Shown here: positions 27,232 through 42,425 of the stretch, one piece after another
How positions within the stretch are numbered: position 1 is the stretch's first letter
Layout: every line of letters begins with the position of its first letter
Notes under the pieces: generated by a model
The model's database searches: none
Told to the model about the DNA's origin: nothing
Seen by the model: only the letters and a program-made list of their open reading frames with translations
Made by a program: the position numbers and the translations under genes
Origin: a virus
Length of the DNA: 64,000 nt
Reading direction: 5' to 3' (one strand)
IMG/VR virus record: IMGVR_UViG_3300031963_012969

Positions 27232-27302
27232 ATTTTTAGTTATTCTTACTGATAATCTTCACAAAAGAAAGAAGTTTTTTGTAATTATTAGCTAGTAGCT
27301 AA

Positions 27303-27337
27303 AAAAAAGCGAGAACATTTTGTGTTCTCGCTTTTTT
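27303..27337. terminator. Bidirectional intrinsic terminator closing small-gene cassette A
   Basis: A-tract GCGAGAACA-loop-TGTTCTCGC T-tract. Confidence 0.85.
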
Positions 27338-27340
27338 CGT

Positions 27341-27691
27341 TTAAAACATAGAAGCAATTGGATTTGCTTCTATGTTTCGTTTTCTTATGTTTCGTACCTT
27401 ATCTTTTATTGTTAAGATACTGTCTGGTTTTATTCCTAAGTTTATACATCTCATCGTTGCTGCCTCCTCTGCAAGAAACCATTGGTCCTCTGAGAGTACT
27501 ACATTACTAAGCTCATTGATTAGAGTGAACAGGAAGACTAATATCTCCTTGTCTAATGAGCTCAATGATTCTTGACCTTTCTGTATTGAAGAGTGGTTGA
27601 CAGCATCCAGCTCCAAAAGCTGGATAGATCTCCCAGTCTGGTACACTTTGCTTAATTTTTTGGTAATTTCCGCATTCATATACGGTAACAT
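27341..27691 (-). CDS. Hypothetical protein (true start probably downstream of the called one)
   Basis: Fills the gap to the terminator; the 5' half overlaps the upstream gene. Confidence 0.45.
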   Translation of the reverse strand: MLPYMNAEITKKLSKVYQTGRSIQLLELDAVNHSSIQKGQESLSSLDKEILVFLFTLINELSNVVLSEDQWFLAEEAATMRCINLGIKPDSILTIKDKVRNIRKRNIEANPIASMF

Positions 27692-27800
27692 TTTTTATGT
27701 GATGTTTTACTTTGAGATGTTTGCATTTTGTTTTATCATTATTCCATTCGCCGTAAGCGCATGGAATCCGACAACAATGGCCGGATCCCATGCAACTCAT
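27513..27800 (-). CDS. Cys-cluster protein (YkgJ-like Zn/Fe-S binding)
   Basis: CMGSGHCC..PC...CKHL...C.NY...GCC pattern. Confidence 0.6.
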   Translation of the reverse strand: MSCMGSGHCCRIPCAYGEWNNDKTKCKHLKVKHHIKNVTVYECGNYQKIKQSVPDWEIYPAFGAGCCQPLFNTERSRIIELIRQGDISLPVHSNQ

Positions 27801-27985
27801 TTTGGTATTTCTCCTGGCATCCTAGCACTATTCATCATTGCGCTATTACAGACTGGACACTTATATATTCCAGGCCATGTATAGCTCTGAACTATTCTAT
27901 CAATTGGGCAATAATATATGTATATCATTGATGCCATGCAAGCACTTGTTGATAATGCTATTACACTTAATATAAATGTTTTCAT
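27797..27985 (-). CDS. Small protein with signal-like N-terminus and CPVC motif
   Basis: Start moved to MKTFIL; ATGA overlap with the next gene. Confidence 0.55.
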   Translation of the reverse strand: MKTFILSVIALSTSACMASMIYIYYCPIDRIVQSYTWPGIYKCPVCNSAMMNSARMPGEIPK

Positions 27986-27992
27986 ATTAATA

Positions 27993-28199
27993 TTAATTTT
28001 TATTGTTATCTTTTTCGGTAATAAATAAAGTAAAACCATAAATGGCTGTAAGTACTAGTACCCAGAACATCAATGGTAGAACCAGACTTATTACTTTTAT
28101 TAAAGCCTTTATAGCTATAACTATTATTAAAGCAATAAACGCAATTTTTGAAATTGCCTTTATTACTGTGATTACTGTGATCACTTCTTCTTTTTTCAT
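27993..28199 (-). CDS. Small membrane protein
   Basis: 68 aa, two hydrophobic stretches; first gene after the conserved promoter-like motif. Confidence 0.6.
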   Translation of the reverse strand: MKKEEVITVITVIKAISKIAFIALIIVIAIKALIKVISLVLPLMFWVLVLTAIYGFTLFITEKDNNKN

Positions 28200-28233: not shown

Positions 28234-28273
28234 CAATATATTATGGCTTTTATTTGTATTGTTTTAGGTACCC
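28234..28273 (-). promoter_or_regulatory. Candidate phage-specific promoter, copy A
   Basis: GGGTACC-N18-AGCCATAATATATTG; second copy at 41239-41277. Confidence 0.65.
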
Positions 28274-28284
28274 ATACATAAATA

Positions 28285-28319
28285 TAAAACACAACCACAA
28301 TAAACATGGTTGTGTTTTA
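28285..28319 (-). terminator. Hairpin after the oxygenase gene, insulating promoter A
   Basis: taaaacacaacca...tggttgtgtttta 13-bp inverted repeat. Confidence 0.65.
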
Positions 28320-28341
28320 CTTTGGAGGGAAATTTATTTTA

Positions 28342-28932
28342 TTATCTAAAATGATTGCCGCCAACCCATAATACTAGACTTTTTCTTATCCCAGACACTA
28401 CTGGCGTAACCCTATGTAGCAAATAAGACGGAAATAAAATAACTGCACCTTTGTCTTTTGGCAAGTCTTGTGACATTGATGACTTCATTATTTGTAAAAC
28501 TCCACCTTCGTATTCGGTTGGATCAGATAACTGTACAACCATACTTAATTTTCTTCTTGAAGTTAATCCTGGACCCAAGTCAAGATGCCAACCAAAATGA
28601 CCGCCACCTCCCAGATACTTTGTATATTGTATCGATTCATTTATACAATGAATATCAAAGTTCCATAAATCTTTGTTTGCTCTAAATGCGAGGTCGATCA
28701 TTTTATCATATAGCCACACAAAATTAGGATCTTCTTGGGGGATCCAACTAATTTTACTGTTTCTATGTTGCAAATTGGGTTTATCTGCACCGTAAGTAAC
28801 AGCATCCTGAGTCTCGACCCCTGAGAGTGATTCTTCAATTTTCTGTATTTCTTCTAAAGAAAACCCTGTTTTATACCAATACCAATTAGAAATATCTATA
28901 TCTTTTTGAGGAAAAATTGCTCTTTTGTCCAT
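28342..28932 (-). CDS. 2OG-Fe(II) oxygenase (prolyl-4-hydroxylase/PKHD-like)
   Basis: WHLD...RKLS...YEGG...FPSYLLHRVTPV..G.RKSLV.W. Confidence 0.93.
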   Translation of the reverse strand: MDKRAIFPQKDIDISNWYWYKTGFSLEEIQKIEESLSGVETQDAVTYGADKPNLQHRNSKISWIPQEDPNFVWLYDKMIDLAFRANKDLWNFDIHCINESIQYTKYLGGGGHFGWHLDLGPGLTSRRKLSMVVQLSDPTEYEGGVLQIMKSSMSQDLPKDKGAVILFPSYLLHRVTPVVSGIRKSLVLWVGGNHFR

Positions 28933-28996
28933 ATATTTAATGTTGTTGTGTTTTATTAATTGGGTATATATAAAAAATAATTTAATTCAAGTGTTT

Positions 28997-30853
28997 TTAA
29001 TAACCAATTACATTCTTTGGCGGTTTACCAAATTCTTTGCCGTACGCTAATCCTGGTAACGGATTAGTACCATGTATATTAGATGTTACGTCACCCTTTA
29101 TGATATTTTTCTTTAAATTTTTTTGAACATAAGATGTTCCAAGTTGAGACATCCAATCTTTATCGTGAGATGGATTCTCCATTAATCTAACCATATTTGG
29201 CTTAAAGCTTGGTTCGTGATCTGAAACCAAAACTTGTTTTTCCTCCATGTCATTCAATTCCTTCGCTACACTTTTAGTGATCTTTGTTCCAATGCTATAA
29301 TTTAGTACTGGTGCTTCTAGAAATTTTCCAATAGCTTTTTGTGGCTCCAAATTTAATGAATCTTGCCTAGGAACATAGCTTTTACTGAAAGAGCTATACT
29401 CTACAACCTCATCCGGTAAGTAATGACTAGATTCATCAGCATCAGTAACTGTAACGTGATCAACAACGGCTCTAGCTACTAACTCAGCATTTCTCCTGGA
29501 TACATCTATACCATTATCTTTGAATGTATCCTGTATTTGCTTCAGTAAGCTTAATCTTCCAGCACCAATACCCTTTAATCTTACTACGTCAGCTGGGTTC
29601 ATCAATCCGCTTGACAGTCTGTCTCCTGGTTCTACCGTGTCTCCCCTTTTTACTAAAATTTGGTGATCTGGGGATACATAGTGTTCTTTTCCAGATACAA
29701 TAATACTTGATCCGCCTTGAGGTAATTTATCTACTCTATCAACTACGCCATCCGTCTCAGAAATAGAAGCTTTGTCTGGAAAAGTTTCCGGTACCTGAAA
29801 TAGTGCGTTTATTGCTTTAAAGCCAGTTACTTTTGCCACATTGGCTACGCCAGCTGAGTGCTTAGTGGAAAGAAGACTTTGGCTAAGTGGCTCCGTTAAT
29901 GCACTTGCAGCAGAAAGACCAACGGCATCCGATAAACTTGGCAACGTCCCACGCTCTCTGATACCACAGCACTTTGAGCATACACCGTTGTGCGCGTTGC
30001 ACGTCATTGCAGACCTAACCAATATTTTGCTTTTTCCCTGTTTTTGTATATCTTTTATAATTTTGGGGGTAATCAATGTGCCCGCAGGATATCCAGAAAT
30101 GCCCTTAGCCAAAACAGATCCAGCATTGTCCTTGTCATCAATTGTAACTGGAATACCTGAAGAAGTTTTGCAGTCGTCTTCAGTGACCAATAAATCCATG
30201 GCAGCTGCATTTATCTGTTTCGCTAAAAACCCAGAATTTTGAGTGGAGAATTTTGTAGCTATCAATCCGGCTCTAGTTCCATAACTAGCAGCGAAGTATT
30301 CAGCTGGGGTCATCCCTTGCGTGTAGGAACTTTTTATTCCTATAGGGACTGGAGTATTTGTTTGGTCCATAACCAAGAAGTCGGCACCTATATTACTATT
30401 TAATTGACTCTTGTTTCCTCTTGCTCCAGATGCAACCATTTTTGCCAAATTTGAACCCCTTTTAAGAGACGCGTCAAATATCATATCTGGCATTTTTGAT
30501 GAATATTTGTTGTACAACTTAATTAACTTATTTTCCTTCTCTTCCTGTGTCAAAGTTTTGTCCGAAAAAATACTATTTTCTTCGGTCGTAACTTGGTCCA
30601 TCAAACTTTTTTTATCTATAGGAGATTCAAGGTCTTTCATCGAGAAAGAGCTTCCAGTCTCCACCGCCCCTTTAGATCCTAGTCTAAGTAACTTAAAAGA
30701 TATATCTCTATATTTTTCTGGTTCGTTTTCGGCTATTCTTTGTAGGACATCTTTAACCTCTTTGCTACCAATAGGCCTATCGTCAGGAATATCATTTCTG
30801 AACCCTTCTGGGACAATAGAATTAAAAATAAGTCTAGCTACTGTAGTAGTCAT
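28997..30853 (-). CDS. DNA-directed RNA polymerase, beta' C-terminal part
   Basis: SGARGN, bridge helix (YFAASYGTRAGLIATKFSTQNSGFL), TEDDC, VRS..TC....GVCSKC zinc site, trigger loop EPLSQSLLSTKH. Confidence 0.93.
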   Translation of the reverse strand: MTTTVARLIFNSIVPEGFRNDIPDDRPIGSKEVKDVLQRIAENEPEKYRDISFKLLRLGSKGAVETGSSFSMKDLESPIDKKSLMDQVTTEENSIFSDKTLTQEEKENKLIKLYNKYSSKMPDMIFDASLKRGSNLAKMVASGARGNKSQLNSNIGADFLVMDQTNTPVPIGIKSSYTQGMTPAEYFAASYGTRAGLIATKFSTQNSGFLAKQINAAAMDLLVTEDDCKTSSGIPVTIDDKDNAGSVLAKGISGYPAGTLITPKIIKDIQKQGKSKILVRSAMTCNAHNGVCSKCCGIRERGTLPSLSDAVGLSAASALTEPLSQSLLSTKHSAGVANVAKVTGFKAINALFQVPETFPDKASISETDGVVDRVDKLPQGGSSIIVSGKEHYVSPDHQILVKRGDTVEPGDRLSSGLMNPADVVRLKGIGAGRLSLLKQIQDTFKDNGIDVSRRNAELVARAVVDHVTVTDADESSHYLPDEVVEYSSFSKSYVPRQDSLNLEPQKAIGKFLEAPVLNYSIGTKITKSVAKELNDMEEKQVLVSDHEPSFKPNMVRLMENPSHDKDWMSQLGTSYVQKNLKKNIIKGDVTSNIHGTNPLPGLAYGKEFGKPPKNVIGY

Positions 30854-30863
30854 TTAAAGTAAA

Positions 30864-32168
30864 CTATACCCTATGGTAATATATACACTCAAGTCCCTTA
30901 TTTTTGTCATACAAAAAAGCTTGAGCACACCTATTTGATGTAACATACCCAGAGTTGCTATGCCAAGCATCAGGTGCAGATAAACTTGGAATAACTCTTG
31001 CTATCACTCCACCCTCTTCAATTGAAGACTCTCTATGTAAATGGCCAAGATGCCACTCACAATAAACTGTTTTTCCCCACAGCTCTCTTTGTTCAACTTG
31101 AGCTATTCTAGTGAGTTGATTTAATTTTATTTTATCTCCGTGAGTGAAACACAAAAGCGTATTTCCAACTGCATGATATTTTCTAGATGTAGCTGCATTA
31201 TCTATTGATATGGTTTTAGAACCCTTGAAAAATGCTCCAAGGAACTCACCTAAATAAAAAGTTCTCTCTATGTCGTGGTTTCCTGGAACTATAATAACCT
31301 TTACTGGTGCAATTGAGTTGCATTGATTTATTGCCCATGTAGACAATTCACAACCTCTTCTAAAAGATTTTTGCCAACGACTATCTTCGTTCTGTGGAGT
31401 TCCATTACCTGTAGTATTTTCCTTGTTATTTACATTAAAGAAATCATTACCTATTGGTAGAATTATCTCCGATATTTTTTCGCCTTTGACTTTATCTAAA
31501 AAATCCAGCAAAGCTGATCTAAATTTTTCTATAGCCTCTGCAGAATTATAATTACTGTGTCCTGTTTCTTCTTCCCAAGCAAGTTTCCCCAAGTGTAGAT
31601 CTGGGATTGAAATTTCAAAAACCTTTCCACCAGAAACATTGTGCTTCTTTTGTGTAGTTAAAGAATTTTTTATGCCAGATATACAGCTATTAAAAATATC
31701 CGAAATGTTTTCTCGAGTTAATTGATTTCTTTTGAGCTGTGCTTTTACTTGGTACAAGTTCTTAGTTACAACGTCTCCGTCCTTTGATTTCATTCCAACT
31801 GGCCAAGTGTTAGCTGTCCACCTTTCGATTTGCCATTTTTTTAGGTCTATATTACAGGCGCTAATCAAGTCCTCCAATGTTTTAATATCTTCTGTTACCG
31901 ACTCTGCCTCCATTTCGTTCTCGTCTCCAACGCATCTAGTTTTGCTTTGTTTTTGAGGTACATGTTGTAATCCTTCCTTGGCGAACTCAAACGATTGTGA
32001 AAATTTTTCAAATAAATTAGATGAAGGTCTAAGTGCGTGTTCCACAGAGCTAAAACTACGCATTAATTTTTTTGCTATTTTGTCATACGTCAGACCATTG
32101 TTTTTGTAGTTGCAGGCTTTTTCAAACTCGTTTTTTGTCCAGGATGTGTTGTTTTTTTTGTTTATCAT
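30864..32168 (-). CDS. Calcineurin-like metallophosphoesterase with N-terminal HTH
   Basis: DLHLG, GND, GNHD, THG and GHLH motifs. Confidence 0.85.
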   Translation of the reverse strand: MINKKNNTSWTKNEFEKACNYKNNGLTYDKIAKKLMRSFSSVEHALRPSSNLFEKFSQSFEFAKEGLQHVPQKQSKTRCVGDENEMEAESVTEDIKTLEDLISACNIDLKKWQIERWTANTWPVGMKSKDGDVVTKNLYQVKAQLKRNQLTRENISDIFNSCISGIKNSLTTQKKHNVSGGKVFEISIPDLHLGKLAWEEETGHSNYNSAEAIEKFRSALLDFLDKVKGEKISEIILPIGNDFFNVNNKENTTGNGTPQNEDSRWQKSFRRGCELSTWAINQCNSIAPVKVIIVPGNHDIERTFYLGEFLGAFFKGSKTISIDNAATSRKYHAVGNTLLCFTHGDKIKLNQLTRIAQVEQRELWGKTVYCEWHLGHLHRESSIEEGGVIARVIPSLSAPDAWHSNSGYVTSNRCAQAFLYDKNKGLECIYYHRV

Positions 32169-32169
32169 C

Positions 32170-32394
32170 TTATTGTTCTTTTATTTTTATACCTAAATTT
32201 TTAGCCACTTGGTCAAAATCTTCCTGATCATCTCTTGATATAATCATTACTGGGCTTGGAGGCATTAACAATACTAACGCAACAAGGGTATTTGTATTAT
32301 CCCTTATCTCTATTGTTTTAACCTCTTTTGTATCTAGCAGTGGCTCTTCTAGGGGGTTATTTTTTGCAATAACTCTCAAAGAATAATCTGGCAT
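32170..32394 (-). CDS. Hypothetical protein
   Basis: 74-aa ORF tightly packed in the operon. Confidence 0.6.
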   Translation of the reverse strand: MPDYSLRVIAKNNPLEEPLLDTKEVKTIEIRDNTNTLVALVLLMPPSPVMIISRDDQEDFDQVAKNLGIKIKEQ

Positions 32395-32399
32395 GTTTT

Positions 32400-32858
32400 T
32401 TATTGTGCTGGTTGTACCTCAGTATTTGCTTGAGCCTGTTGATCGGCTGAAGCAGATTGCTGCTCTTGTTGAGCTGCTGCTTGCTGTGGATCTGCACCAG
32501 TTATTTGTGCCATCATTTGCTCTATTTGGTCAAGTCTTTCTTGAACACTTTTTTTCTTTTCCCCCTTACCACCCATTTTCATTGCCTGTAATTCCATACC
32601 AATTTGTTGAACAATTTGCATTGTTTGCTGCTGCATTTGTGCTAACTGCTCTAGCCCTCCCTGTATTAATTGTGCAAGCTCTGGAAATCCTATCTGAGGC
32701 TGACCATCAGTTCCTGGAGCTGGTGGAGGTGGCTGAGGAATTGATCCTTCTTGTTGAGCCTGTGCTATTGCTTGTTGTGTTTGGGGAGAGGACACAAAAG
32801 CTTTTTTATCTATCTTGTTTAATATTTCGTTTAATAACTCTGTATTAAAATTTAACAT
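32400..32858 (-). CDS. Gln-rich protein with KKA leader
   Basis: MLNFNTELLNEILNKIDKKAFV leader; Q/P-rich. Confidence 0.6.
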   Translation of the reverse strand: MLNFNTELLNEILNKIDKKAFVSSPQTQQAIAQAQQEGSIPQPPPPAPGTDGQPQIGFPELAQLIQGGLEQLAQMQQQTMQIVQQIGMELQAMKMGGKGEKKKSVQERLDQIEQMMAQITGADPQQAAAQQEQQSASADQQAQANTEVQPAQ

Positions 32859-32869
32859 ATATTTATTCC

Positions 32870-33487
32870 TTATCTAAAAAGTAACCTACAGGTCATAAAT
32901 TCTCCTGGGGATGTGTCGGCTACAGAAATTACCTTCAATCTTATTTGATCCTGTGGGTAAAATTCTTTTTCTTTTGTAAAAATCTCGTAATAAAATAACT
33001 TACTATCTTCTATTATAGTTTCATTTATAGTTGAGTTTGTATTCTCCTCTTTTAGTTGTATTACAGTAGAGCCGCCAACTGGGCTCATAAAAAAACTTAC
33101 CTGCATTCCGTAACAGATCAATGATTGTGTCCCAGGTATGTCAAAATAACCAAAAGTTTTCCCAGCAAATAAAGCTCCAGGAAAATAAAAATCTACAAAT
33201 CCAGGGGCCGAAGCAGAACCAGATGTAGTTCCTGGACCGGCACTCAGTGTTACTAATGAATTTATTGGTCTCCATACCACATTTCCGTCTAAGTCTAGTG
33301 TCGGAACCCAACCCTCGGTAGCCAAAGAAGATGGCTGACTTATGAACTCTTTCCAAACCTTACCGCCATCTTTTGTGTATTGTATAGAAAGAGACCCAGA
33401 GGAGGGGTTCCTATAAAATCTAGTTTTTTGGCTATCGACCAATGGGTTTGGTATAAAATGTTGGTCCCCTAAAATTGGATCTGGCAT
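32870..33487 (-). CDS. Hypothetical protein, possibly structural
   Basis: Beta-rich C-terminal domain; ORF packing. Confidence 0.5.
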   Translation of the reverse strand: MPDPILGDQHFIPNPLVDSQKTRFYRNPSSGSLSIQYTKDGGKVWKEFISQPSSLATEGWVPTLDLDGNVVWRPINSLVTLSAGPGTTSGSASAPGFVDFYFPGALFAGKTFGYFDIPGTQSLICYGMQVSFFMSPVGGSTVIQLKEENTNSTINETIIEDSKLFYYEIFTKEKEFYPQDQIRLKVISVADTSPGEFMTCRLLFR

Positions 33488-33490
33488 ACC

Positions 33491-34114
33491 TTAAATATTG
33501 AATAATTTTTTAATTAAACCCTTTGGTTTTTCTTCTTGTTTACTTAAATCCTCTGATTCTTCTTCTGGAAGATCTATTACCCCCACATTCAAATCAGTGT
33601 CTTGATTTGGTCTCTTTCTAAGACTTGTGCTAACCCTAATAACTTTCCCTTCCCCTACCCTCTTGGCCGCTCTACTCATGTTTAATATCATGGGGATTAA
33701 AGCAGCAGTCCCAAGTACCCCAGCTCCACCAATAATTGTTTTTTCTGTGGGGGACAATTTATCTAGGAATGGTTTTCTTATATGTTCTTGTGTTTTTGCA
33801 ATTTCATCTTGTGATTTTTGCAGTCCATGTAATGCAGGAATCGCTGCTAGAGCCACATCTTTTGTGGGTGCCAATAGAACAGTTCCAAGTCCTTTTGTTA
33901 CATCACCTTTTCTAATTAGATTACCACCAAGGGCTCCCGTAAGTAGATTGACTACACCGAGCCCAATTCTGGATGGGGTTACATCGCTATAGTTGTCTTT
34001 ATTCTGAAGGTAATCCAGTCCGCCAGCGGTTACACCACCTGTAATTAATGGGGTAAGCAAATTCTTAGCAACAGATGCATTTTTACCAAATAACACTGAG
34101 GGCTTCGTATTCAT
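33491..34114 (-). CDS. Glycine-zipper protein with KNA leader
   Basis: Start moved to MNTKPSVLFGKNAS; three Gly-rich hydrophobic helices. Confidence 0.55.
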   Translation of the reverse strand: MNTKPSVLFGKNASVAKNLLTPLITGGVTAGGLDYLQNKDNYSDVTPSRIGLGVVNLLTGALGGNLIRKGDVTKGLGTVLLAPTKDVALAAIPALHGLQKSQDEIAKTQEHIRKPFLDKLSPTEKTIIGGAGVLGTAALIPMILNMSRAAKRVGEGKVIRVSTSLRKRPNQDTDLNVGVIDLPEEESEDLSKQEEKPKGLIKKLFNI

Positions 34115-34121
34115 TTTTATA

Positions 34122-37100
34122 TTATGCACTAATTTCAACTGGTGTGTCGATTGATATTTCTCCCCTTCTGTATGCAGATATTACTTCTGATGCGTCTTTG
34201 AATTTTACTGAAGGTTTATTTTTGTCTATATTCGTTGTGTTGTAAAGTCCTAAAACAAATTCCTGAGATGGGGTATAAAATATCTTATTATCTTTTATTG
34301 ATAGTAAGTTTTTCGACGGCATTAATTTTTTATTAGCCTCTTGTATGGCGTCATCGGATACAGGTACATGTACATTCATTTGATCTCCATCAAAATCTAA
34401 GTTAAATCCTTTGACTATTAATGGGCTAACCTGAATAGAATCTCCTGTAACGAGTCTTGGGGTAGCGGCCATAATATTGAATCTATGTAGAGCTGGTGCT
34501 CTATTGTATAGAACTGGCCTTTCGGACATTTCATCAAGCAAGAATTTTTTAGCATAATCGCTTTTTCTTTCGACGTTTAATGCTGCTTGAGTAGATGGCA
34601 TCCCATTCTTAACCATTCTTCTCATCACAAATGGAGCATATAATTTCCATGCCATTTTTTCTGGAATACCTATGCTGTCCATATCTAGGTCGTCACTAGG
34701 AATTGTCACACCTCTACCGACTGTATTTACGGTGTGCCCAATTACCTTAGATAAAAACATTCCAGTCTTTGGGCCACCAGATCCTGCTAGTGATTTTATA
34801 AAACCTTTTACACCTTTTTGCTGTAATTTTGGGTGAAGTGGATCTCCAAGCCCCATCACAGCAGTTAATGCGTCATATACAGAAAGTTTTTCATCTCCAG
34901 CCTCTGATTCTCCAAACGCATCTTTAGATTCTCTATGAAGATCTCTAGCTGTCATTAAGTCTTTATATAAATAATTTGCATCAGCACTTAACATCATTTT
35001 ACCAGCCATCGATACAGGTCTATAGCTTGGGGGCAACACAGGAACTTTTTTCATAAAAAAGTCATCTTTATCTAATCCCTGTTTTCTTATTCCAGATAAA
35101 ATATTTAATTTTTTTACTGCATCATTCCTAGATGTTTTTGATCCATTTCTTATTGCGGATCTCAAGTCTTCTTCCATTCTATTGAAGTCTATAGATTGGT
35201 ATGCATTAACTAATGCCTCGGGTCCAGTTCTTCCATCAATCATTTCTTTTCCAGATAGAACGTCCCTCATTTTGTTCTCAGTGAGCCCAAGTAATTTTCT
35301 TAGTGGTTCTTCTAATATTGGATTTGGAATTGGCTCGTCCAATGATATGAAGCTCCAGTTTTTACCGTCTATGCCGTGCAACGATTGATCCATTAGACCA
35401 CCTTTTACGGGCTCCCCAGTTCTAGGGTTTATTGTTTCAGCATTGCTAAGTTCTCTGTTTTCAACTAATGAATCTATGTCCGCTTTTTTTAAAGCTTTTA
35501 TTGTTATATTTGCTCCCCTTTTGTCTGGATTGATTCCAGCCGCTTTTAGTGTGTTGGTGAATTTTTCATAGATAAAGGGGGTTTTTGGTGCTGGTAATGA
35601 CATGCCCATTTTTATAGATCTCCACATATCCACGTTTGCACCCGTCCTATAATTCTGAATATCGAATAAATTTTTAACAGCACCATGAGAAAGTAATGCC
35701 ATTGTATCTAACATACCTATTCTTTTTGCACTTTCTGATCCACCTGGTTTACCTGGTTGTTCGTTTAGGTCTGGATTACCCTCATCTATCGCGCTAAGCT
35801 TTGCGTCTGCTGTATGCTCTAGCTTTAGAAAATTTTGTATACCAGTGAGAACTTTTGGTATTACTTTATTTGTTTCTGGGTCCAGTAAGTCTTCTGTATC
35901 TGATACCTGATTAAGCTCTAATTCATTTTTTACGAAGTCGTGAAACGAGTCAGAAGAAAAGGATGGAAGTGTATATCTTTTTCCAGTCTTTGTGGCGACT
36001 TTTCCTAACAAAGCTTCATATACCATGCCTGGGTTAACTCTTCCAATCATGGCAGCTGGATTGATCAATATATCCACTGTGTTTCCGTCTTTATCCTTAA
36101 ACATCTTATCATCAGGAATTATTCGACCAATAACCCCCTTAGCAGCAAATCTAGATGATATTTTATCCCCAGGCTTTGCTGGAAAATTTGCTGATATGTT
36201 TACAGACAAACCTCTTCTTGTTTCTATGGCATCTATAACGTTACCATTTACGTTTTTTTCCCATGTTTGGCTTTTATCTATAAAAGATTTTTTGAGAATT
36301 TTATGTAGATTTCCCTTAGCTCTGTCTTCTGCCCTTAGAATCCTAGGAGCAACAGATAAAAATACTGGATCACCAGGATTTATTTCTGCGCCTGGTTTAA
36401 TCATTCCATTGTCGTCTATCTTGTTTAGCTGTTCCTTTGTGTATTTATTTGGGAACAATTGTATAAATTTATTTTTATTGGAAACTACTCCGTCCTTATT
36501 CTCTACATCAAATCCATATAAATGCGATGACGTAAGTTTAGATGCAGCGCCTTCACTAATTGTAATAGAGTCCTCAAACGTACCGCCCTGTTTTCCTGGC
36601 ATAAAAGCTACCCTAAGATTCTTGCCTATAGATAGTTCTCCATCTTTATTTACATAATTTGAATGAGCTAATGCTTGTCCGGTTTTAACTTGATCGCCTG
36701 GCTTAACTAATGGAGTATCTGTAGTAAATGTCTTTCTGTTGTGTGGATAAAAATATCTTAACTCCATGTCCACATCTTTTTTGTCTAACCCAGTTATTGT
36801 TATTCTATCGTTTGTTATTTTTTTAACTACCCCGTCAGTTGGGGACGCGACAACCCCTATTTTAGACCCTATGGTCTTTTCTAGTGGTTGTTCATTGTCT
36901 TCGTCTAATGACATTACAAGAGGTGGCTCTGGTTGTGCCATCGGCAAAGCTTGAGTAAAATACTTGCCAGCCATAAATGCTCTAGCCCCCTTCATTGTAC
37001 TAAACATTGGGGCTAGATTAATAGAGTCTGTATACACGTGCGAAGGGGACAATATTTTGTATTCCACTTCGTCTGGGGTAGCATAAGTTAACTTACCCTT

Positions 37101-37214
37101 TTTCATTGCTGGAACCGGGTAAGACGATTTTGATCCGTTAGGATCTATTACTTGTGGTAACGCATTCTTCTGGACAAAGTCTGGAAAAAGCTCTGAAAAC
37201 AAATCTTTTTTCAT
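34122..37214 (-). CDS. DNA-directed RNA polymerase, fused beta C-terminal + beta' N-terminal (catalytic) subunit
   Basis: beta motifs GKNLRVAFMP, FEDSI, GDKISSRFAAKGV, LKLEH; beta' motifs ETINPRT, PVLPPSYRP, NRAPALHR, FNLDFDGDQM. Confidence 0.95.
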   Translation of the reverse strand: MKKDLFSELFPDFVQKNALPQVIDPNGSKSSYPVPAMKKGKLTYATPDEVEYKILSPSHVYTDSINLAPMFSTMKGARAFMAGKYFTQALPMAQPEPPLVMSLDEDNEQPLEKTIGSKIGVVASPTDGVVKKITNDRITITGLDKKDVDMELRYFYPHNRKTFTTDTPLVKPGDQVKTGQALAHSNYVNKDGELSIGKNLRVAFMPGKQGGTFEDSITISEGAASKLTSSHLYGFDVENKDGVVSNKNKFIQLFPNKYTKEQLNKIDDNGMIKPGAEINPGDPVFLSVAPRILRAEDRAKGNLHKILKKSFIDKSQTWEKNVNGNVIDAIETRRGLSVNISANFPAKPGDKISSRFAAKGVIGRIIPDDKMFKDKDGNTVDILINPAAMIGRVNPGMVYEALLGKVATKTGKRYTLPSFSSDSFHDFVKNELELNQVSDTEDLLDPETNKVIPKVLTGIQNFLKLEHTADAKLSAIDEGNPDLNEQPGKPGGSESAKRIGMLDTMALLSHGAVKNLFDIQNYRTGANVDMWRSIKMGMSLPAPKTPFIYEKFTNTLKAAGINPDKRGANITIKALKKADIDSLVENRELSNAETINPRTGEPVKGGLMDQSLHGIDGKNWSFISLDEPIPNPILEEPLRKLLGLTENKMRDVLSGKEMIDGRTGPEALVNAYQSIDFNRMEEDLRSAIRNGSKTSRNDAVKKLNILSGIRKQGLDKDDFFMKKVPVLPPSYRPVSMAGKMMLSADANYLYKDLMTARDLHRESKDAFGESEAGDEKLSVYDALTAVMGLGDPLHPKLQQKGVKGFIKSLAGSGGPKTGMFLSKVIGHTVNTVGRGVTIPSDDLDMDSIGIPEKMAWKLYAPFVMRRMVKNGMPSTQAALNVERKSDYAKKFLLDEMSERPVLYNRAPALHRFNIMAATPRLVTGDSIQVSPLIVKGFNLDFDGDQMNVHVPVSDDAIQEANKKLMPSKNLLSIKDNKIFYTPSQEFVLGLYNTTNIDKNKPSVKFKDASEVISAYRRGEISIDTPVEISA

Positions 37215-37217
37215 GTA

Positions 37218-37823
37218 TTAATAAATTAAATATCTACGTATAAACATATTCAAAGAGTTCAAACATCTTTCAGATCTATATATTAAATAACTTATAGATT
37301 TCCAGAAATGTTTCCAGCCAGCTTTATTTAGCAACTTCCTAAATCTATTTATTAGTTTTTTATCCTTTTCCTTTTGTTCATGTATTAGTCTTTCAAAGCT
37401 AATTGAATGTTTTTCGGTTGTTTTTACCTCAACTAATAAAATCTTATCTAATTTCCCGTAAATAAAGTATGCATCAAAATCCATCCAGGTTTCCTCTGTG
37501 TCGGATGAGTCTATGCTACTATAAAATGTTATTTTGCCGTGATAGTCTATTTTCTTTGTATATCTATCTTTCTCTATTACTTCTTTCCAGATATTCCACG
37601 GTCTAACGTCTTTACTTTTTCTCTCTTCTTCAGAGAATGGTATGTATTCTCTTTCTACTATCTCTTCTACTAGATCTCCAGTTTCTGTTATGAAGTATTG
37701 ACTTAAACAATTATCTAAGTCTTTTGTTTGAAAATTTATTTCACTCCAATTAATTGAATGTTTCTTTAATTCGTCATTAAGTGGTAATTCTACACTGACT
37801 TTAATTTCATCGAACATCCCCAT
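37218..37823 (-). CDS. Conserved phage hypothetical protein
   Basis: MGMFD...FQTKDL.NCL..Y.I pattern, which I recall from phage proteins of unknown function. Confidence 0.6.
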   Translation of the reverse strand: MGMFDEIKVSVELPLNDELKKHSINWSEINFQTKDLDNCLSQYFITETGDLVEEIVEREYIPFSEEERKSKDVRPWNIWKEVIEKDRYTKKIDYHGKITFYSSIDSSDTEETWMDFDAYFIYGKLDKILLVEVKTTEKHSISFERLIHEQKEKDKKLINRFRKLLNKAGWKHFWKSISYLIYRSERCLNSLNMFIRRYLIY

Positions 37824-37828
37824 ATGTA

Positions 37829-38827
37829 TTAAGTTATATTTGCTGTGTTTATTGAATTATTGGAAACATTCTTAAATGCATCTGGATTCCTAATTATAGC
37901 GTCTATTATTGTTTTTTTAGGAACTTTGTTTCTTAGAGAATTTAAGTATGGATCTGGATTTTGCTGAGCTTTTCTTGCTACAGTTCTCGCAAGGAACCCA
38001 GGAACGCCTGGTATTTTCCAGTCGTGTTTTATAGCGTTATTAAAGAATTGGTCAACGTTTAAATTTTTAGACAAAATTCTTTTGTATAATCCCTCTGGTG
38101 TTTCATTTGGAATACTGGTCTGAAGTTGCGGCAATTGAGCGTTAGACTTTTTCTGGAACGGTTGTCCAACTGGCTGAAATTGATTTGCCTGTTGAGGCAT
38201 TTGTTTCATGGGAACAGACACATTAGATGGAATACCTGGTCCAGTGGATGTAGCGCTAGATGTATAAGTTGGTGTATAATTTTGATTTATCTGTCCAGGA
38301 TTACGCGCAGCCTCGTCCATGGAGTTTTGAACATTAAGTTTACCTAGCTCGCCTAACATTTGTCCTGTACCTGCTATAGTTTTAATAGGGTTAGCAAATC
38401 CATGCCAAGCTCTACCCATGACACCTTTATCTGCAACCTGTTGAGTTTCTGCTAAATTTTTTGCGGGATCCATTGCGACATCTACCCCTTGCAACGCCAT
38501 ATTTCCGGCCCATGCCCATGGTGCCGCTTTAGAAGCAAATCCCAATGCTTTCCCAGCCACTCCAGCTGCGTTAGATGATTGAGCCATCGCTCCAATTGCG
38601 TTATTCATTCTAGGAGCAACCTTTGACAAGTGATGACGTCCTTCGTGCAACAAACTGCTGGCTCCTGTACCGCCTTCGGCAATACTAACTGCTTGATGTA
38701 GTCCATGCCCGTGTCCAGTGTTTGCTACGGCAAGACCGTCACTTACAGCAGAAATTGGCTGACTAATTAATCTTGGAATGCTGCCAAATCCAGCCTTTTT
38801 ACTTAACAAAGATAATATTTTTTTCAT
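37829..38827 (-). CDS. Gly/Ala-rich protein with KKA leader
   Basis: MKKILSLLSKKAGFG leader; amphipathic Gly/Ala helices; Q/P linker. Confidence 0.55.
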   Translation of the reverse strand: MKKILSLLSKKAGFGSIPRLISQPISAVSDGLAVANTGHGHGLHQAVSIAEGGTGASSLLHEGRHHLSKVAPRMNNAIGAMAQSSNAAGVAGKALGFASKAAPWAWAGNMALQGVDVAMDPAKNLAETQQVADKGVMGRAWHGFANPIKTIAGTGQMLGELGKLNVQNSMDEAARNPGQINQNYTPTYTSSATSTGPGIPSNVSVPMKQMPQQANQFQPVGQPFQKKSNAQLPQLQTSIPNETPEGLYKRILSKNLNVDQFFNNAIKHDWKIPGVPGFLARTVARKAQQNPDPYLNSLRNKVPKKTIIDAIIRNPDAFKNVSNNSINTANIT

Positions 38828-38839
38828 ACAATAATGTCA

Positions 38840-39733
38840 TTAACTGCATCTGCATCTCCACTTCCTTAGAGCTTTGTTTATTCTACTATCTGGATCATTT
38901 TTTGTTTCAGCCCCAGTTCTTCTTTTTTTCATCCCACACATTCTGGAGCAGAAACTGTTTTGTCTGCTTTCTCTTTTACCTTTTGGATTTTTTTCAGTAA
39001 CTGGAGCTTTTAGGTTGCCGCCAGTTTGTTTATTGTAACTTGCTCTACCTTTTGCATTTAATCCGCCCTCCGAGTTTTTCCCTTCAGATCTTTGCCACGC
39101 CGGAGACTTTGCCATCTTATCTGGCAAAAAAGTTACAGCTTGTTCAGCCGATTTCGTCAATCTATTCCACTGCTTTTTGTCTGGATAATCTTTATCCCCA
39201 GGTTTAGCTGGTTTTTCGCCCCTTTGTCTTTTTGCTCTTATGTTTGCCCAAAGGCCAGGTTTTTCATCTTTTGCTAACTTGGGAAGAAAACTAACTTTAT
39301 TCATATTTTTATTATATTTCTTGGTTTTATATTCGTCCATAAGAACTTTTAATGCTTCTGGGTCTTTTACTAATTTAGTTGGGTCAATGGCCCAATTCCT
39401 CAGTGCATACGCTCTTCTTGGGGTTGGATTAGACTGAAACATTTTACCGCCGTGCCTAGCCTTAAAAGCAATCCACCTTTTAATTTGCCTTTTGTCGTCT
39501 TCCATTCTTCTGCCCTCGGAGTATCTTTTGTACCACTGCAGCCACCCATGAGGATCAGCTGGATGGTACCAGTGTTGTGGCCACTCAGGTAAACTCGCTA
39601 GTCTTGGTGCATCCTGGGGGCCGTATACCTCTCCGTATACCCCTATTTCCTTAAGTTGATCTGGAGTAAAATCTGGCAAAAAACTGGTTTCTACGTCTTG
39701 CTGCTTTTCTTTATTGTCTTCTGGATTGCTCAT
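38840..39733 (-). CDS. Modular polyprotein: DPHGWLQWY domain + PGLWANI module + DUF6321-like domain
   Basis: Three recognisable basic modules separated by KLA, KSA and KMA; start moved to MSNPED. Confidence 0.65.
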   Translation of the reverse strand: MSNPEDNKEKQQDVETSFLPDFTPDQLKEIGVYGEVYGPQDAPRLASLPEWPQHWYHPADPHGWLQWYKRYSEGRRMEDDKRQIKRWIAFKARHGGKMFQSNPTPRRAYALRNWAIDPTKLVKDPEALKVLMDEYKTKKYNKNMNKVSFLPKLAKDEKPGLWANIRAKRQRGEKPAKPGDKDYPDKKQWNRLTKSAEQAVTFLPDKMAKSPAWQRSEGKNSEGGLNAKGRASYNKQTGGNLKAPVTEKNPKGKRESRQNSFCSRMCGMKKRRTGAETKNDPDSRINKALRKWRCRCS

Positions 39734-39790
39734 TAAACAGATTAAATTAACACATTTAATGTATATATACAAATAAGATATCTGTCATCT

Positions 39791-39833
39791 AAAAAAAAGG
39801 TGGAAGGAGCTTTCGCCCCTTCCACACTTTTTT
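39791..39833 (-). terminator. Intrinsic terminator closing small-gene cassette B
   Basis: GTGGAAGG...CCTTCCAC stem around a GCGAAAGC loop, then T8 on the minus strand. Confidence 0.88.
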
Positions 39834-39990
39834 AGCTCAACTGTTTTATTCCCAGTATTGTAATTGGGAATTTTTTGTTGAGCTGTTTCCAGGCCTGGGC
39901 AACATGCCCACGGCTTTCTCCATACCTAACTGCCTTAAGTAGTTTAATGGGGTTAGGCTGTTGTCTATATGATATTTCAAATAGCTTCAT
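39832..39990 (-). CDS. 52-aa hypothetical protein (not in ORF track)
   Basis: Hand-translated MKLFEISYRQQPNP...GIKQLS; ends exactly at the terminator. Confidence 0.6.
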   Translation of the reverse strand: MKLFEISYRQQPNPIKLLKAVRYGESRGHVAQAWKQLNKKFPITILGIKQLS

Positions 39991-40387
39991 CTTTTTCATA
40001 TAGTATTGTGCAAGTTGACCATACTACAGACGCCAAAAATACATTAACAATCAAATAGATGGATAATGTAATTGGTGACAGTAGTGCGATTACTGCTCCC
40101 CAAAGGGCCACTGCGGGTACCTCTGTGTAGCAGATTTCGTCTGCTATCTTTCGGCACATCCACCCTGGGACATTGTATTTGTCTAGTCTTTTGCCTAGAA
40201 AAATAACAATTGCTATTAATGGGGTAAAAACCCCAACTAGTATTGAGGGTACAAAACCAATCTTCAGTAAATCTACTGCAGATTGCCATGTGTCGTTAAT
40301 GGCAGTGTATCTCATTATAATACCAGATATAATACTTATTATAAGTACATAAGGAAAATACAATGCTAACTTTTTTGCTATTTTCAT
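39977..40387 (-). CDS. Multi-pass membrane protein
   Basis: Start moved to MKIAKK (ATGA overlap); about four hydrophobic helices. Confidence 0.65.
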   Translation of the reverse strand: MKIAKKLALYFPYVLIISIISGIIMRYTAINDTWQSAVDLLKIGFVPSILVGVFTPLIAIVIFLGKRLDKYNVPGWMCRKIADEICYTEVPAVALWGAVIALLSPITLSIYLIVNVFLASVVWSTCTILYEKDEAI

Positions 40388-40590
40388 GTTTTTATTTTGT
40401 AGCCGTATTCTGCGCATAGATCCGCAAACGCAGATACGCAGTACCCAGCAATAAAGTCACTTGCGTGACTTTCTTCCCAGTGAGGATGTCTCTCAAGCAA
40501 AATGGTTTTAAAGTTTTGGATGTTTTCACATCCAAAATCATTTGCCAGCTCTTGCTCTATTACATTATATGTTTTTTGAATACTACTCAT
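40384..40590 (-). CDS. Hypothetical protein
   Basis: 68 aa, ATGA overlaps at both ends. Confidence 0.65.
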   Translation of the reverse strand: MSSIQKTYNVIEQELANDFGCENIQNFKTILLERHPHWEESHASDFIAGYCVSAFADLCAEYGYKIKT

Positions 40591-40748
40591 TTTGTGTAAT
40601 ATCTATACATGTTACCCTGTCTACTGATTTGCTGTAGCCATGTCTCCGACCCGAAAGTATAAACGGGTCTCGGATCTGGATTCCTGAATGGAAATAATTT
40701 TTCCATTCCTCTTGTCACGGCAAACACTAATATGTTTTTGATCTTCAT
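40587..40748 (-). CDS. 53-aa hypothetical protein (not in ORF track)
   Basis: Hand-translated MKIKNILVFAV...YRYYTK; ATGA overlaps with both neighbours. Confidence 0.65.
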   Translation of the reverse strand: MKIKNILVFAVTRGMEKLFPFRNPDPRPVYTFGSETWLQQISRQGNMYRYYTK

Positions 40749-41095
40749 AATGAGACAATGTATGTTTTAACTTTATTGTATGTATCTATGCACTTATCCT
40801 TGATGTGACTTACAATACCGCTATCATCTTTTTGAAGGCGGATTGTCTGTATTGCCAATTTTTCATTAGCAGTTAGATTGTTTAGATCCAACTTATTGAA
40901 CTCCTCACTGGAGCCCTGTGAAGCTACGGTGAGCGCGACTTTAAAGTCGCCGCTAACCGTGTTGTCTTTGATTTGATTGTTTACGCTGTAAATGTACAGC
41001 ACTGCACTGAACAATAGGCAGAGTACTGCGCTATTGACTAGGATTACGTTGCTCATCATTTTAGCTATTTTTATTACTGGTTTCATGGTGTTCAT
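40745..41095 (-). CDS. Membrane-anchored hypothetical protein
   Basis: One N-terminal TM helix; CAA-rich leader. Confidence 0.65.
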   Translation of the reverse strand: MNTMKPVIKIAKMMSNVILVNSAVLCLLFSAVLYIYSVNNQIKDNTVSGDFKVALTVASQGSSEEFNKLDLNNLTANEKLAIQTIRLQKDDSGIVSHIKDKCIDTYNKVKTYIVSL

Positions 41096-41238
41096 GTTGT
41101 TTGGTTTTGTTGTTGGTTGTTATATAAAAAAAATCGAGTTTTGCCACTGGCCGATTTTTTAGAGCCAGCTATTATTTTTAGGACACTTTTAAATCTTTTT
41201 TAGGGATCCGATAGGGTGTATCCTAGAATATTTCCTAT

Positions 41239-41277
41239 CAATATATTATGGCTAAAAACACCTGTTTTTTGGTACCC
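41239..41277 (-). promoter_or_regulatory. Candidate phage-specific promoter, copy B
   Basis: GGGTACC-N17-AGCCATAATATATTG. Confidence 0.65.
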
Positions 41278-41280
41278 CTA

Positions 41281-41308
41281 TTGACTTTTTCGATATAACT
41301 GATATGGT
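41281..41308 (+). promoter_or_regulatory. Sigma70-like promoter for tRNA-Gln and the glycosyltransferase
   Basis: TTGACT-N16-TATGGT with a TG extension, 17 nt before the tRNA. Confidence 0.5.
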
Positions 41309-41325
41309 TTTCTAATTACCACCAG

Positions 41326-41398
41326 TGCCCTCTGGGGGAATGGTAGACCCAACCGGCTTTGAACCGGTCTTTTCTAGGTTCGAGTCCTAGGGGGGCAG
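41326..41398 (+). tRNA. tRNA-Gln(TTG), CCA not encoded
   Basis: TGCCCTC/GGGGGCA acceptor stem; ACCGG-CTTTGAA-CCGGT; GGTTCGAGTCC. Confidence 0.88.
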
Positions 41399-41414
41399 CA
41401 TACAAAAACAAAAC

Positions 41415-42425
41415 ATGAAAAAAGTATTATTTTGGCCATATAAATATAATAATATGGGAGCAGATTGGTCTATTCCAGTATTGCACTTAATTAATTGCTT
41501 TAAATCTCACAATTTTCAAGTGTTAAGACATCCTAACTTTAAATTTACTAATGACATAGATACAGAAATTTATGACTTCAATAAACACAGGGATGATATA
41601 GATATTTGTATATACAATCATACAGATATATCTTTAATAATTGGAAACGTAATAAAATGCCGCAAAAATTTATTTTTTAAGCCCACAGTCCCTGAGCGCG
41701 GCTATACAACATTAGATGAATTAGGGTATGGGCCGTATTCCTCAATTACATACGAAAAACCAAAATTTGATATTTATTCAACGGAAGAAATAAATAATTT
41801 TTACGAAACTGAAGTTAAAAACTGGATAGACATGAGGTCCAATAAATGGTTTAAAGATTTTAATCCTGTAGAAAAAACAATAGAAGAAGATGATTACTAT
41901 TTAATAGTAGGACAATGTTATGGGGATGAAGTCATAAAAAGACATGAATTTGGATCATACAAAGAAAAAGTAGAACAAATCATAAAAGAAATAAGTAGAA
42001 TAGATACAACCAGAAAAATTATTGTTAAACTTCATCCATACGTCAATGGGGCAAAAGAACCAATGGTGGGTGGATTTGGCGAGCAAATAAAAAGTGAAAT
42101 AGAAAAAATTTCAAGCTCTGTAGTTGTATATACAGGCAATTTAAGTATTCATGATTTTTTACCTAAAGCTCGTTGTGTATTTATTGCTAATTCTGGGGCT
42201 GGGATAGAAGCGATGATGCATAACAAGCCAATAGTTTCTTGGGGAAACCCAGAATATCACTGGGCAACATATAGACTTATTCACCTAGCAGACATAATAA
42301 GAGCTATTCGAGTAGAGGACTGGTTCGATAAATTTAAGCAACAACAATTTTTGTATTGGTATACAAAACACTACTGCTTCTATAATTATGAAAGTTGTTA
42401 TAGAAGAGTAGGAGAAGTTATTTAA
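41415..42425 (+). CDS. Capsule-synthesis (KpsC/KpsS-like) glycosyltransferase
   Basis: VKLHP and SIHDFL...V...NSGAGIEAMMHNKPIVSWG.P.Y motifs. Confidence 0.75.
   Translation: MKKVLFWPYKYNNMGADWSIPVLHLINCFKSHNFQVLRHPNFKFTNDIDTEIYDFNKHRDDIDICIYNHTDISLIIGNVIKCRKNLFFKPTVPERGYTTLDELGYGPYSSITYEKPKFDIYSTEEINNFYETEVKNWIDMRSNKWFKDFNPVEKTIEEDDYYLIVGQCYGDEVIKRHEFGSYKEKVEQIIKEISRIDTTRKIIVKLHPYVNGAKEPMVGGFGEQIKSEIEKISSSVVVYTGNLSIHDFLPKARCVFIANSGAGIEAMMHNKPIVSWGNPEYHWATYRLIHLADIIRAIRVEDWFDKFKQQQFLYWYTKHYCFYNYESCYRRVGEVI

Follow-up and report, generated by a model that had tools for sequence, protein, structure and literature searches.

The 64,000-nucleotide stretch of viral DNA analysed here (IMG/VR record IMGVR_UViG_3300031963_012969; hereafter the window) carries two intergenic minus-strand copies, W1 and W2, of a bipartite motif, each of which heads a cassette of small genes. 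The motif is very probably a promoter, a conclusion strongly supported by the fixed distance between its two boxes, its gene-facing orientation, its placement after terminators and its footprints in four further lineages. From the sequence comparisons described below we put the probability at about one half that it represents a low-copy promoter class specific to a phage-encoded sigma factor and polymerase, which would drive insulated accessory or early cassettes. Naming the phage machinery as the reader is the more specific step, and it is taken because the lineage encodes a sigma70-family factor beside its polymerase, a combination that suits a two-box promoter. In the initial annotation the motif was described as an early promoter read by the phage enzyme. 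The promoter part of this description is supported by the two-box layout, the orientation, the placement and the footprints; the reading polymerase and sigma, the start site and the timing are what we infer.

In both copies GGGTACC is followed by the 15-mer AGCCATAATATATTG. W1 (28273-28234) has an 18-nt spacer and continues with TAGGATG after the 15-mer, W2 (41277-41239) has a 17-nt spacer and continues with ATAGGAAA, and the two spacers are unrelated in sequence. The two intergenic copies with identical 7-mer and 15-mer and with unrelated spacers of near-equal length were thus found at the positions originally described. The TAGGA that had been noted directly after the motif is present at W1 as part of TAGGATG, and relatives conserve only TAG or TAA there.

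Relatives of the window phage were found in IMG/VR and in metagenomes by means of the polymerase protein, at 96%, 75-79%, 47-53% and about 40% identity. The contigs G001 (99 kb) and G007 (131 kb), at 99.97% identity, represent one phage, which shares about 87% DNA identity with the window. Joining G001/G007 with the rest of the window gave a composite of 171.8 kb, and the whole genome is estimated at roughly 180-200 kb. A more distant group, the 75% clade, consists of G002/L121, G006/L132, L243, L244 and L250. The boxes of the two window copies are the following.

28267-28273, minus strand: upstream, -35-like box GGGTACC of W1; unchanged in the G001 orthologue and replaced by GGGTACT in the 75% clade
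28234-28248, minus strand: downstream box AGCCATAATATATTG of W1, with CATAAT at 28245-28240 and the predicted start region TAGG at 28233-28230
41271-41277, minus strand: upstream box GGGTACC of W2, invariant at the same position in G002, G006, L244 and L241
41239-41253, minus strand: downstream box AGCCATAATATATTG of W2, with CATAAT at 41250-41245 and a 144-nt leader to the ATG at 41095

The motif is rare. With up to two mismatches allowed the 15-mer has no site in the window besides W1 and W2, and GGGTACC occurs four times in the window. The relaxed pattern GGGTAYC-N18/19-GCCATAAT was found twice in the window and four times in the composite, where the count expected from base composition is 7.7e-4. 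All four copies of the composite are on the coding strand and face downstream genes. Copy 3, outside the window, reads GGGGGGGTACC-N18-TGCCATAATATAATG-TAGA and lies directly past a stop codon; downstream of it are a leader of about 170 nt, a tRNA-Met and then a Pistol self-cleaving ribozyme (Rfam score 44.5 bits, with a gathering score of 34.5). Copy 4, also outside the window, reads GGGTATC-N19-GCCATAATAATATG-TAAG. It is located directly past the terminator that ends a block with a UvsX-like recombinase gene, and the genes downstream have no family match. The initial annotation had expected many copies upstream of early genes; only four were found in about 172 kb, which corresponds to about four in a whole genome of some 180-200 kb. 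The motif is nevertheless not confined to the window, as two extra copies are present in the close relative G001/G007.

When the invariant core defined below was searched with up to two mismatches and the upstream box with up to one, no weaker copies beyond the known sites were detected in the window, G001, G002 or G006. One doubtful site, GGGTAGTAC...TCCATAATAAATTAG, lies 1.3 kb upstream of copy 3. A search of IMG/VR with the 15-mer returned more than 119 single chance matches and was uninformative, a megablast comparison of the region with cultured phages gave no match, and k-mer discovery in the composite revealed no convincing second promoter class.

The anatomy of the motif was compared at ten sites. 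The sequence GCCATAATA forms an invariant core in all ten, and the final ATTG of the 15-mer varies. CATAAT is unchanged across all sites and, like TATAAT-type -10 hexamers, has an A in second and a T in sixth place. GGGTAYC and GCCATAAT are separated by 18-19 nt in 8/10 sites and by 27-28 nt at the W1 position (B site) of the 75% clade, and the sequences between them are unrelated. If CATAAT is set to -12 to -7, then TAG/TAA falls at +1 to +3 and GGGTACC at about -40 to -34. The gap between GGTACC and CATAAT is 20-21 bp, compared with the usual 16-18 bp; a gap of 17-18 bp results only when (A/G/T)GCCAT is regarded as the -10 box. Some spacers contain inverted repeats, of 7 bp each in W2 and in the A site of L244 (shuffle P 0.001) and of 6 bp in copy 3, and those of W1 and of the A site of G002 contain none. 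The repeat sequences are unrelated: AAAAACA-GG-TGTTTTT in the W2 spacer (41254-41270, minus strand) and TTAAATG-GGCG-CATTTAA in L244 (about 4300-4320). A spacer hairpin of the N4 type as a promoter requirement was rejected, since the hairpin is not universal.

Relatives whose polymerase is 75-96% identical have kept the motif at the two matching sites between genes. In the 75% clade, GGGGTACC and GCCATAATATA do not vary at the W2 position, while the spacer and the two flanks can otherwise not be aligned, and at the W1 position the downstream box GGCCATAATA[C/T]ATTAG-TAG is retained. G003, a relative at 47% identity with a GC content of 52%, has four minus-strand intergenic sites of the form GGTGAAAAACAG-N9/10-CCATAATACTTTGA(A/T)GG, which share the -10-like core CCATAAT and have a different upstream box. 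Relatives with a polymerase at 40-53% identity lack the two-box pattern, apart from one doubtful site in L248.

The genes behind the motif behave differently from the motif itself. None of the nine cassette open reading frames (ORFs) behind W1 and W2 (0/9) has a tblastn match at an E value of 1e-3 or better in the 75% clade, whereas the genes flanking the cassettes are 56-85% identical there. Cassette 2 is retained in L241, the relative at 96%. These comparisons show, at the level of sequence, that the cargo behind a conserved motif has been replaced between clades. The motif also marks places where relatives exchange accessory cassettes, which is of use in annotating genes of early function and host takeover in freshwater phages that have not been cultured.

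Nearly all genes of the window are on the minus strand. W1 and W2 each head an insulated unit inside long co-directional operons, and the claim that each copy heads a cassette of small genes ending in a terminator was confirmed for both:

28342-28932, minus strand: 2OG-Fe(II) oxygenase gene, in the unit closed by the terminator at 28320-28284
28284-28320, minus strand: intrinsic terminator of this upstream unit, with a 16-pair stem and a T-rich tail, 10 nt before W1
27341-28199, minus strand: cassette 1, ORFs of 68, 80, 95 and 116 amino acids, the last two overlapping, without family match
27301-27331, minus strand: intrinsic terminator closing cassette 1, GCGAGAAC-loop-GTTCTCGC followed by T8
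39832-41095, minus strand: cassette 2, five ORFs of 116, 53, 68, 146 and 55 amino acids, without family match
39791-39825, minus strand: strong intrinsic terminator closing cassette 2, 11 pairs, seven of them G-C, with a T8 tail
41281-41399, plus strand: divergent unit back-to-back with W2, with a promoter-like site TTGACT-16-TGaTATGGT and tRNA-Gln at 41326-41399
41415-42425, plus strand: capsule-synthesis-like gene of the divergent unit, after the tRNA-Gln

Cargo that is swapped between clades behind a conserved motif is also what would be seen if the motif were chiefly an operator bound by a phage protein or a boundary site for cassette exchange by homologous recombination, with promoter activity secondary or absent. 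A terminator immediately precedes the motif in 2/4 copies (W1 and copy 4), which form terminator-plus-motif composites, the upstream box includes the palindrome GGTACC, inverted repeats occur in several spacers, and the PeSLs of T4-like phages offer a precedent (PMC2839356, PMC4122927). Nonetheless, two strict boxes separated by a free spacer of fixed length, with a -10-like box and a start-like TAG, are the anatomy of a promoter, and the cassettes require one, since they are immediately preceded by terminators or divergent genes. A sequence of 40 bp in four copies would be a short target for recombination, and PeSLs are themselves promoters, so that this explanation overlaps with the promoter interpretation. 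As an account of its own we consider it improbable.

The case for the phage machinery starts from the polymerase. The window encodes a single bacterial-type set of RNA polymerase subunits in three pieces, located between portal-like and capsid-like genes:

42418-43863, minus strand: RNA polymerase beta, N-terminal piece (Rpb2_2, Rpb2_3)
34122-37214, minus strand: C-terminal part of RNA polymerase beta fused to the N-terminal part of beta'
28997-30853, minus strand: RNA polymerase beta', C-terminal piece

Among cultured phages, Vibrio phage D69 and Salmonella phage Arash have the proteins closest to the fused polymerase, at about 33% identity, and the gene order of the window is colinear with that of Arash. 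In the close relative G001 a gene for a 237-amino-acid protein of the sigma70 family (L159:13831-14544, minus strand) is located about 6-7 kb beyond the left end of the window. The protein was recognized by tblastn with Arash Gp10 (E 7e-14), its Pfam Sigma70_r3 match is above the cut-off, and it matches the PHROG entry 'RNA polymerase sigma factor' with an E value of 3e-10. When its AlphaFold model (mean pLDDT 77.6) was compared with the PDB by Foldseek, the top 50 matches were all sigma70-family proteins and extended over nearly the full length; the best structural match was a model of Bacillus subtilis SigD. A search of the relatives with Pfam Sigma70_r2 gave no match, and the sigma was found only through its homology to Arash gp10. 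The five genomes of the polymerase lineage that were checked and are complete or nearly so (the composite, G004, G005, Arash and D69) all contain a homologue. The block containing the sigma gene in G001 is syntenic with Arash gp8-gp11, among genes that are annotated as structural in Arash.

A three-domain sigma is the standard reader of a two-box promoter. Arash Gp10 is annotated as a sigma factor and was detected in purified virions at 100% coverage, alongside beta and beta' (PMC10585845). In a survey of jumbo phages, the polymerase-bearing phiKZ-like phages were without sigma and the sigma-bearing ones were without polymerase (PMC7824862). Because the present lineage carries both, its combination of polymerase and sigma falls outside both surveyed groups.

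The two cultured relatives have motifs of their own. In Arash (OQ632216.1) the pattern GGTATAAG-N5/6-TGTA occurs 16 times between 20.6 and 139.4 kb, with every site on the minus strand (the reversed pattern, used as a control, occurs 0 times), and the sites precede small non-structural genes and tRNAs. In D69 (OZ195729.1) the pattern (T)GTTATAAG-N5-TGTA/TAG occurs about 20 times on one strand, often right past terminators. In each of the two phages the motif probably represents the principal class of early or middle promoters. Both motifs belong to the same polymerase-plus-sigma lineage as the window motif and resemble it in having an S-Y-ATAA core followed 5-6 nt on by TG-TA(A/G), and in standing before small genes and tRNAs, often straight after terminators. 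In contrast to the window motif, they are present in at least 16 copies per genome, have a TG 'extended -10' in place of GCC and a hexamer that ends in G rather than T, and lack the GGGTACC box. To our knowledge, nothing is known about promoter choice in the Arash-like lineage, to which the window phage belongs; the word 'promoter' is absent from the paper describing Arash (PMC10585845), and no paper on D69 was looked for.

Taken as a phage-specific promoter, the motif could work as follows. The G-rich upstream box GGGTAYC and the -10-like box GCCATAAT, 18-19 bp apart, would be read by the phage sigma70-family factor, whose region 4 would contact the upstream box and whose regions 2/3 would contact GCCATAAT. 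Transcription would start at the conserved TAG/TAA, 6-7 nt past CATAAT. The partner of the sigma would be the bacterial-type multisubunit polymerase of the phage, which may be delivered with the virion and would then serve immediate-early units. Each copy would start a short self-contained unit set into long co-directional operons, with variable cargo: ORFans behind W1 and W2, the tRNA-Met and Pistol ribozyme in the close relative, and unknown genes after the replication block. The full version of this proposal, in which the lineage packages a multisubunit polymerase together with its own sigma and the holoenzyme fires from about four two-box promoters of odd geometry to launch insulated immediate-early cassettes, is tentative and, as a whole, somewhat doubtful. 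If true, it would define a sigma-dependent viral polymerase system distinct both from the phiKZ/AR9 type and from phages that borrow the host core enzyme.

Several observations weigh against assigning the motif to the phage enzymes. CATAAT is a good generic sigma70 -10 hexamer that a host holoenzyme could use. The sigma gene is outside the window and was seen only in relatives. Four copies would be a small number if this were the only class of promoter that a dedicated polymerase has. The likeness between the Arash/D69 motifs and that of the window is loose and may reflect convergence. GGGTACC, 20-21 bp from CATAAT, is 3-4 bp beyond a canonical -35 box, and at the W1 position of the 75% clade GGGTACT is 27-28 nt upstream, not 18-19. 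This shift in spacing is easier to reconcile with a separate DNA-binding protein than with region 4 of a sigma factor; since the upstream box is too far away by 3-4 bp and an extra helical turn is inserted at that site, a separate activator could be involved.

The same features can be accommodated by a promoter for the host polymerase, in which a host sigma, primary or alternative, reads CATAAT and GGGTACC serves as an unusual -35 element or as the site of a host or phage activator around -37. CATAAT retains the critical A2 and T6 of the sigma70 hexamer. The upstream box is palindromic in its GGTACC part, 20-21 bp away and one helical turn further in one clade, as activator sites can be. Many phages use the host polymerase for early or moron cassettes, and other sigma70-like sites occur in the window (13320, 41281 and 58105). 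The identity of the host bears on this possibility. GGAG or GAGG was found upstream of only 13/162 genes of the composite, and the leaders are A-rich and G-poor. Leaders that are poor in Shine-Dalgarno sequences and A-rich are typical of Bacteroidota and their phages, and the primary sigma of Bacteroidota recognizes TTTG/TAnnTTTG, not boxes of the TATAAT type. Judged from these leaders, the sequence suggests a Bacteroidota-like host, and the lack of fit between the motif and the Bacteroidota consensus would favour a phage-borne specificity. No intergenic TTTG-N17-21-TAnnTTTG was found in the composite, the motif itself has neither TAnnTTTG near -7 nor TTTG near -33, and the TTGAC-N-TAnnnT consensus is not enriched in intergenic DNA. 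When a clue to the host was sought through the capsule-synthesis-like gene, the search led to viral clusters only. Furthermore, the -10-like core is common to G003, which has a very different GC content, and this is a better fit to a phage-borne specificity; the lineage also has its own sigma and polymerase. A host-polymerase promoter is the main alternative, which we regard as rather unlikely.

If the phage enzymes read the motif, the timing has to be considered separately. The designation 'early' is inferred from the cargo (small ORFans and a tRNA) and from the virion proteomics of the distant relative Arash. The motif might instead be a phage-polymerase promoter that belongs to a middle or late class and depends on freshly synthesized, not injected, enzyme: the cassettes are inside a block of structural and polymerase genes on the same strand, and packaging of polymerase and sigma in the virion is documented only for Arash. 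Against later expression, small ORFans and tRNA are typical of early units, the terminators on both sides insulate the units from the surrounding operons, and the Arash motif precedes small non-structural genes and tRNAs. A middle or late class thus seems to be an improbable assignment.

Among known systems, the element is akin to phage-sigma-specific promoters, to the early promoters of virion polymerases and to PeSL-like units. The first group comprises promoters that depend on gp28 and gp33/34 of Bacillus phage SPO1, phiEco32 gp36 and T4 gp55. As proposed here for the window phage, a phage sigma in these systems redirects transcription to phage-specific boxes that differ from the host consensus, and the SPO1 classes have two boxes with a fixed spacer. 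Unlike the window phage, these phages use the host core enzyme and have no polymerase of their own, the boxes are unrelated, and the regulons are large and of the middle or late type. Of these factors, phiEco32 gp36 is named in PMC5312081.

The early promoters of the AR9 virion polymerase have the consensus AAATATATATTAT-(6N)-G at 41 sites (PMC5312081, PMC7598289). The early promoters of phiKZ and AR9 share with the window motif a conserved AT-rich stretch of about 10 nt near -10 and over-representation, by which they were recognized, before small non-structural genes; these phages, like the window phage, have their own multisubunit polymerase, and ATAATATATT of the window resembles the AR9 core. 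The phiKZ/AR9 motifs, however, have a single box, are present in tens of copies and are read by highly divergent sigma-less polymerases; sigma is absent from group 1 jumbo phages (PMC7824862). The window motif has two boxes, a GC-rich upstream element and about four copies, in a phage lineage with a bacterial-type polymerase and a sigma, and is not a member of that class.

The comparison with PeSLs is drawn because a conserved promoter is combined with replaceable cargo. PeSLs are short conserved terminator-plus-promoter units bordering ORFan cassettes that are swapped between close relatives (PMC2839356, PMC4122927). They differ from the window motif in being host sigma70 early promoters that are numerous and clustered in hyperplastic regions. 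In the window phage repetition is limited to the promoter part, with unrelated terminators, the copies are few, and the terminator-plus-motif arrangement is restricted to W1 and copy 4.

Two other types of promoter were compared. Sigma-28 (FliA/SigD) promoters have the form TAAA-N15-GCCGATAA. The downstream box GCCATAAT resembles GCCGATAA, sharing only GCC-ATAA, and the phage sigma-like protein is structurally closest to a SigD model; the window motif, however, has no CGA core, an unrelated upstream box and a longer spacing, which places it outside the sigma-28 class. Every hairpin promoter of the N4 virion polymerase has a stem of 5-7 bp and a 3-nt loop, a structure that is not shared by the window motif. 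For further work the motif provides a concrete template for in vitro transcription with the three-piece polymerase and the sigma-like protein, for footprinting and for the reading of metatranscriptomes.

Some minor observations concern the surroundings of the copies. In cassette 1 the ORFs at 27341-27691 and 27513-27800 (minus strand) overlap by 179 nt in different frames, and both are 99-100% conserved in G001. Directly past the terminator of this cassette, about 55 nt before a 735-amino-acid gene (25024-27231), is the palindrome TTAGCTACTAGCTAA (27288-27310, minus strand), a candidate for a separate promoter or operator class. The leaders at the W2 position (window 41096-41238, minus strand; L121 4971-5059) contain a stable hairpin, a T-run and an A/C-rich stretch, exemplified by ACAACCAACAACAAAACC before the ATG at 41095, and then the start codon. 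The sequence of the hairpin is not the same from clade to clade, and the structure could be an attenuator or a stabilising element. The tail sheath gene of the window is at 6486-9242. An Rfam scan of the window detected tRNAs only. In G001, about 31 kb to the left of the window start, the tRNA-Met behind copy 3 (L158 8992-9064) is followed directly by the Pistol ribozyme (RF02679, L158:8864-8929, minus strand), beyond which there are about 300 nt of ORF-free, hairpin-rich DNA.

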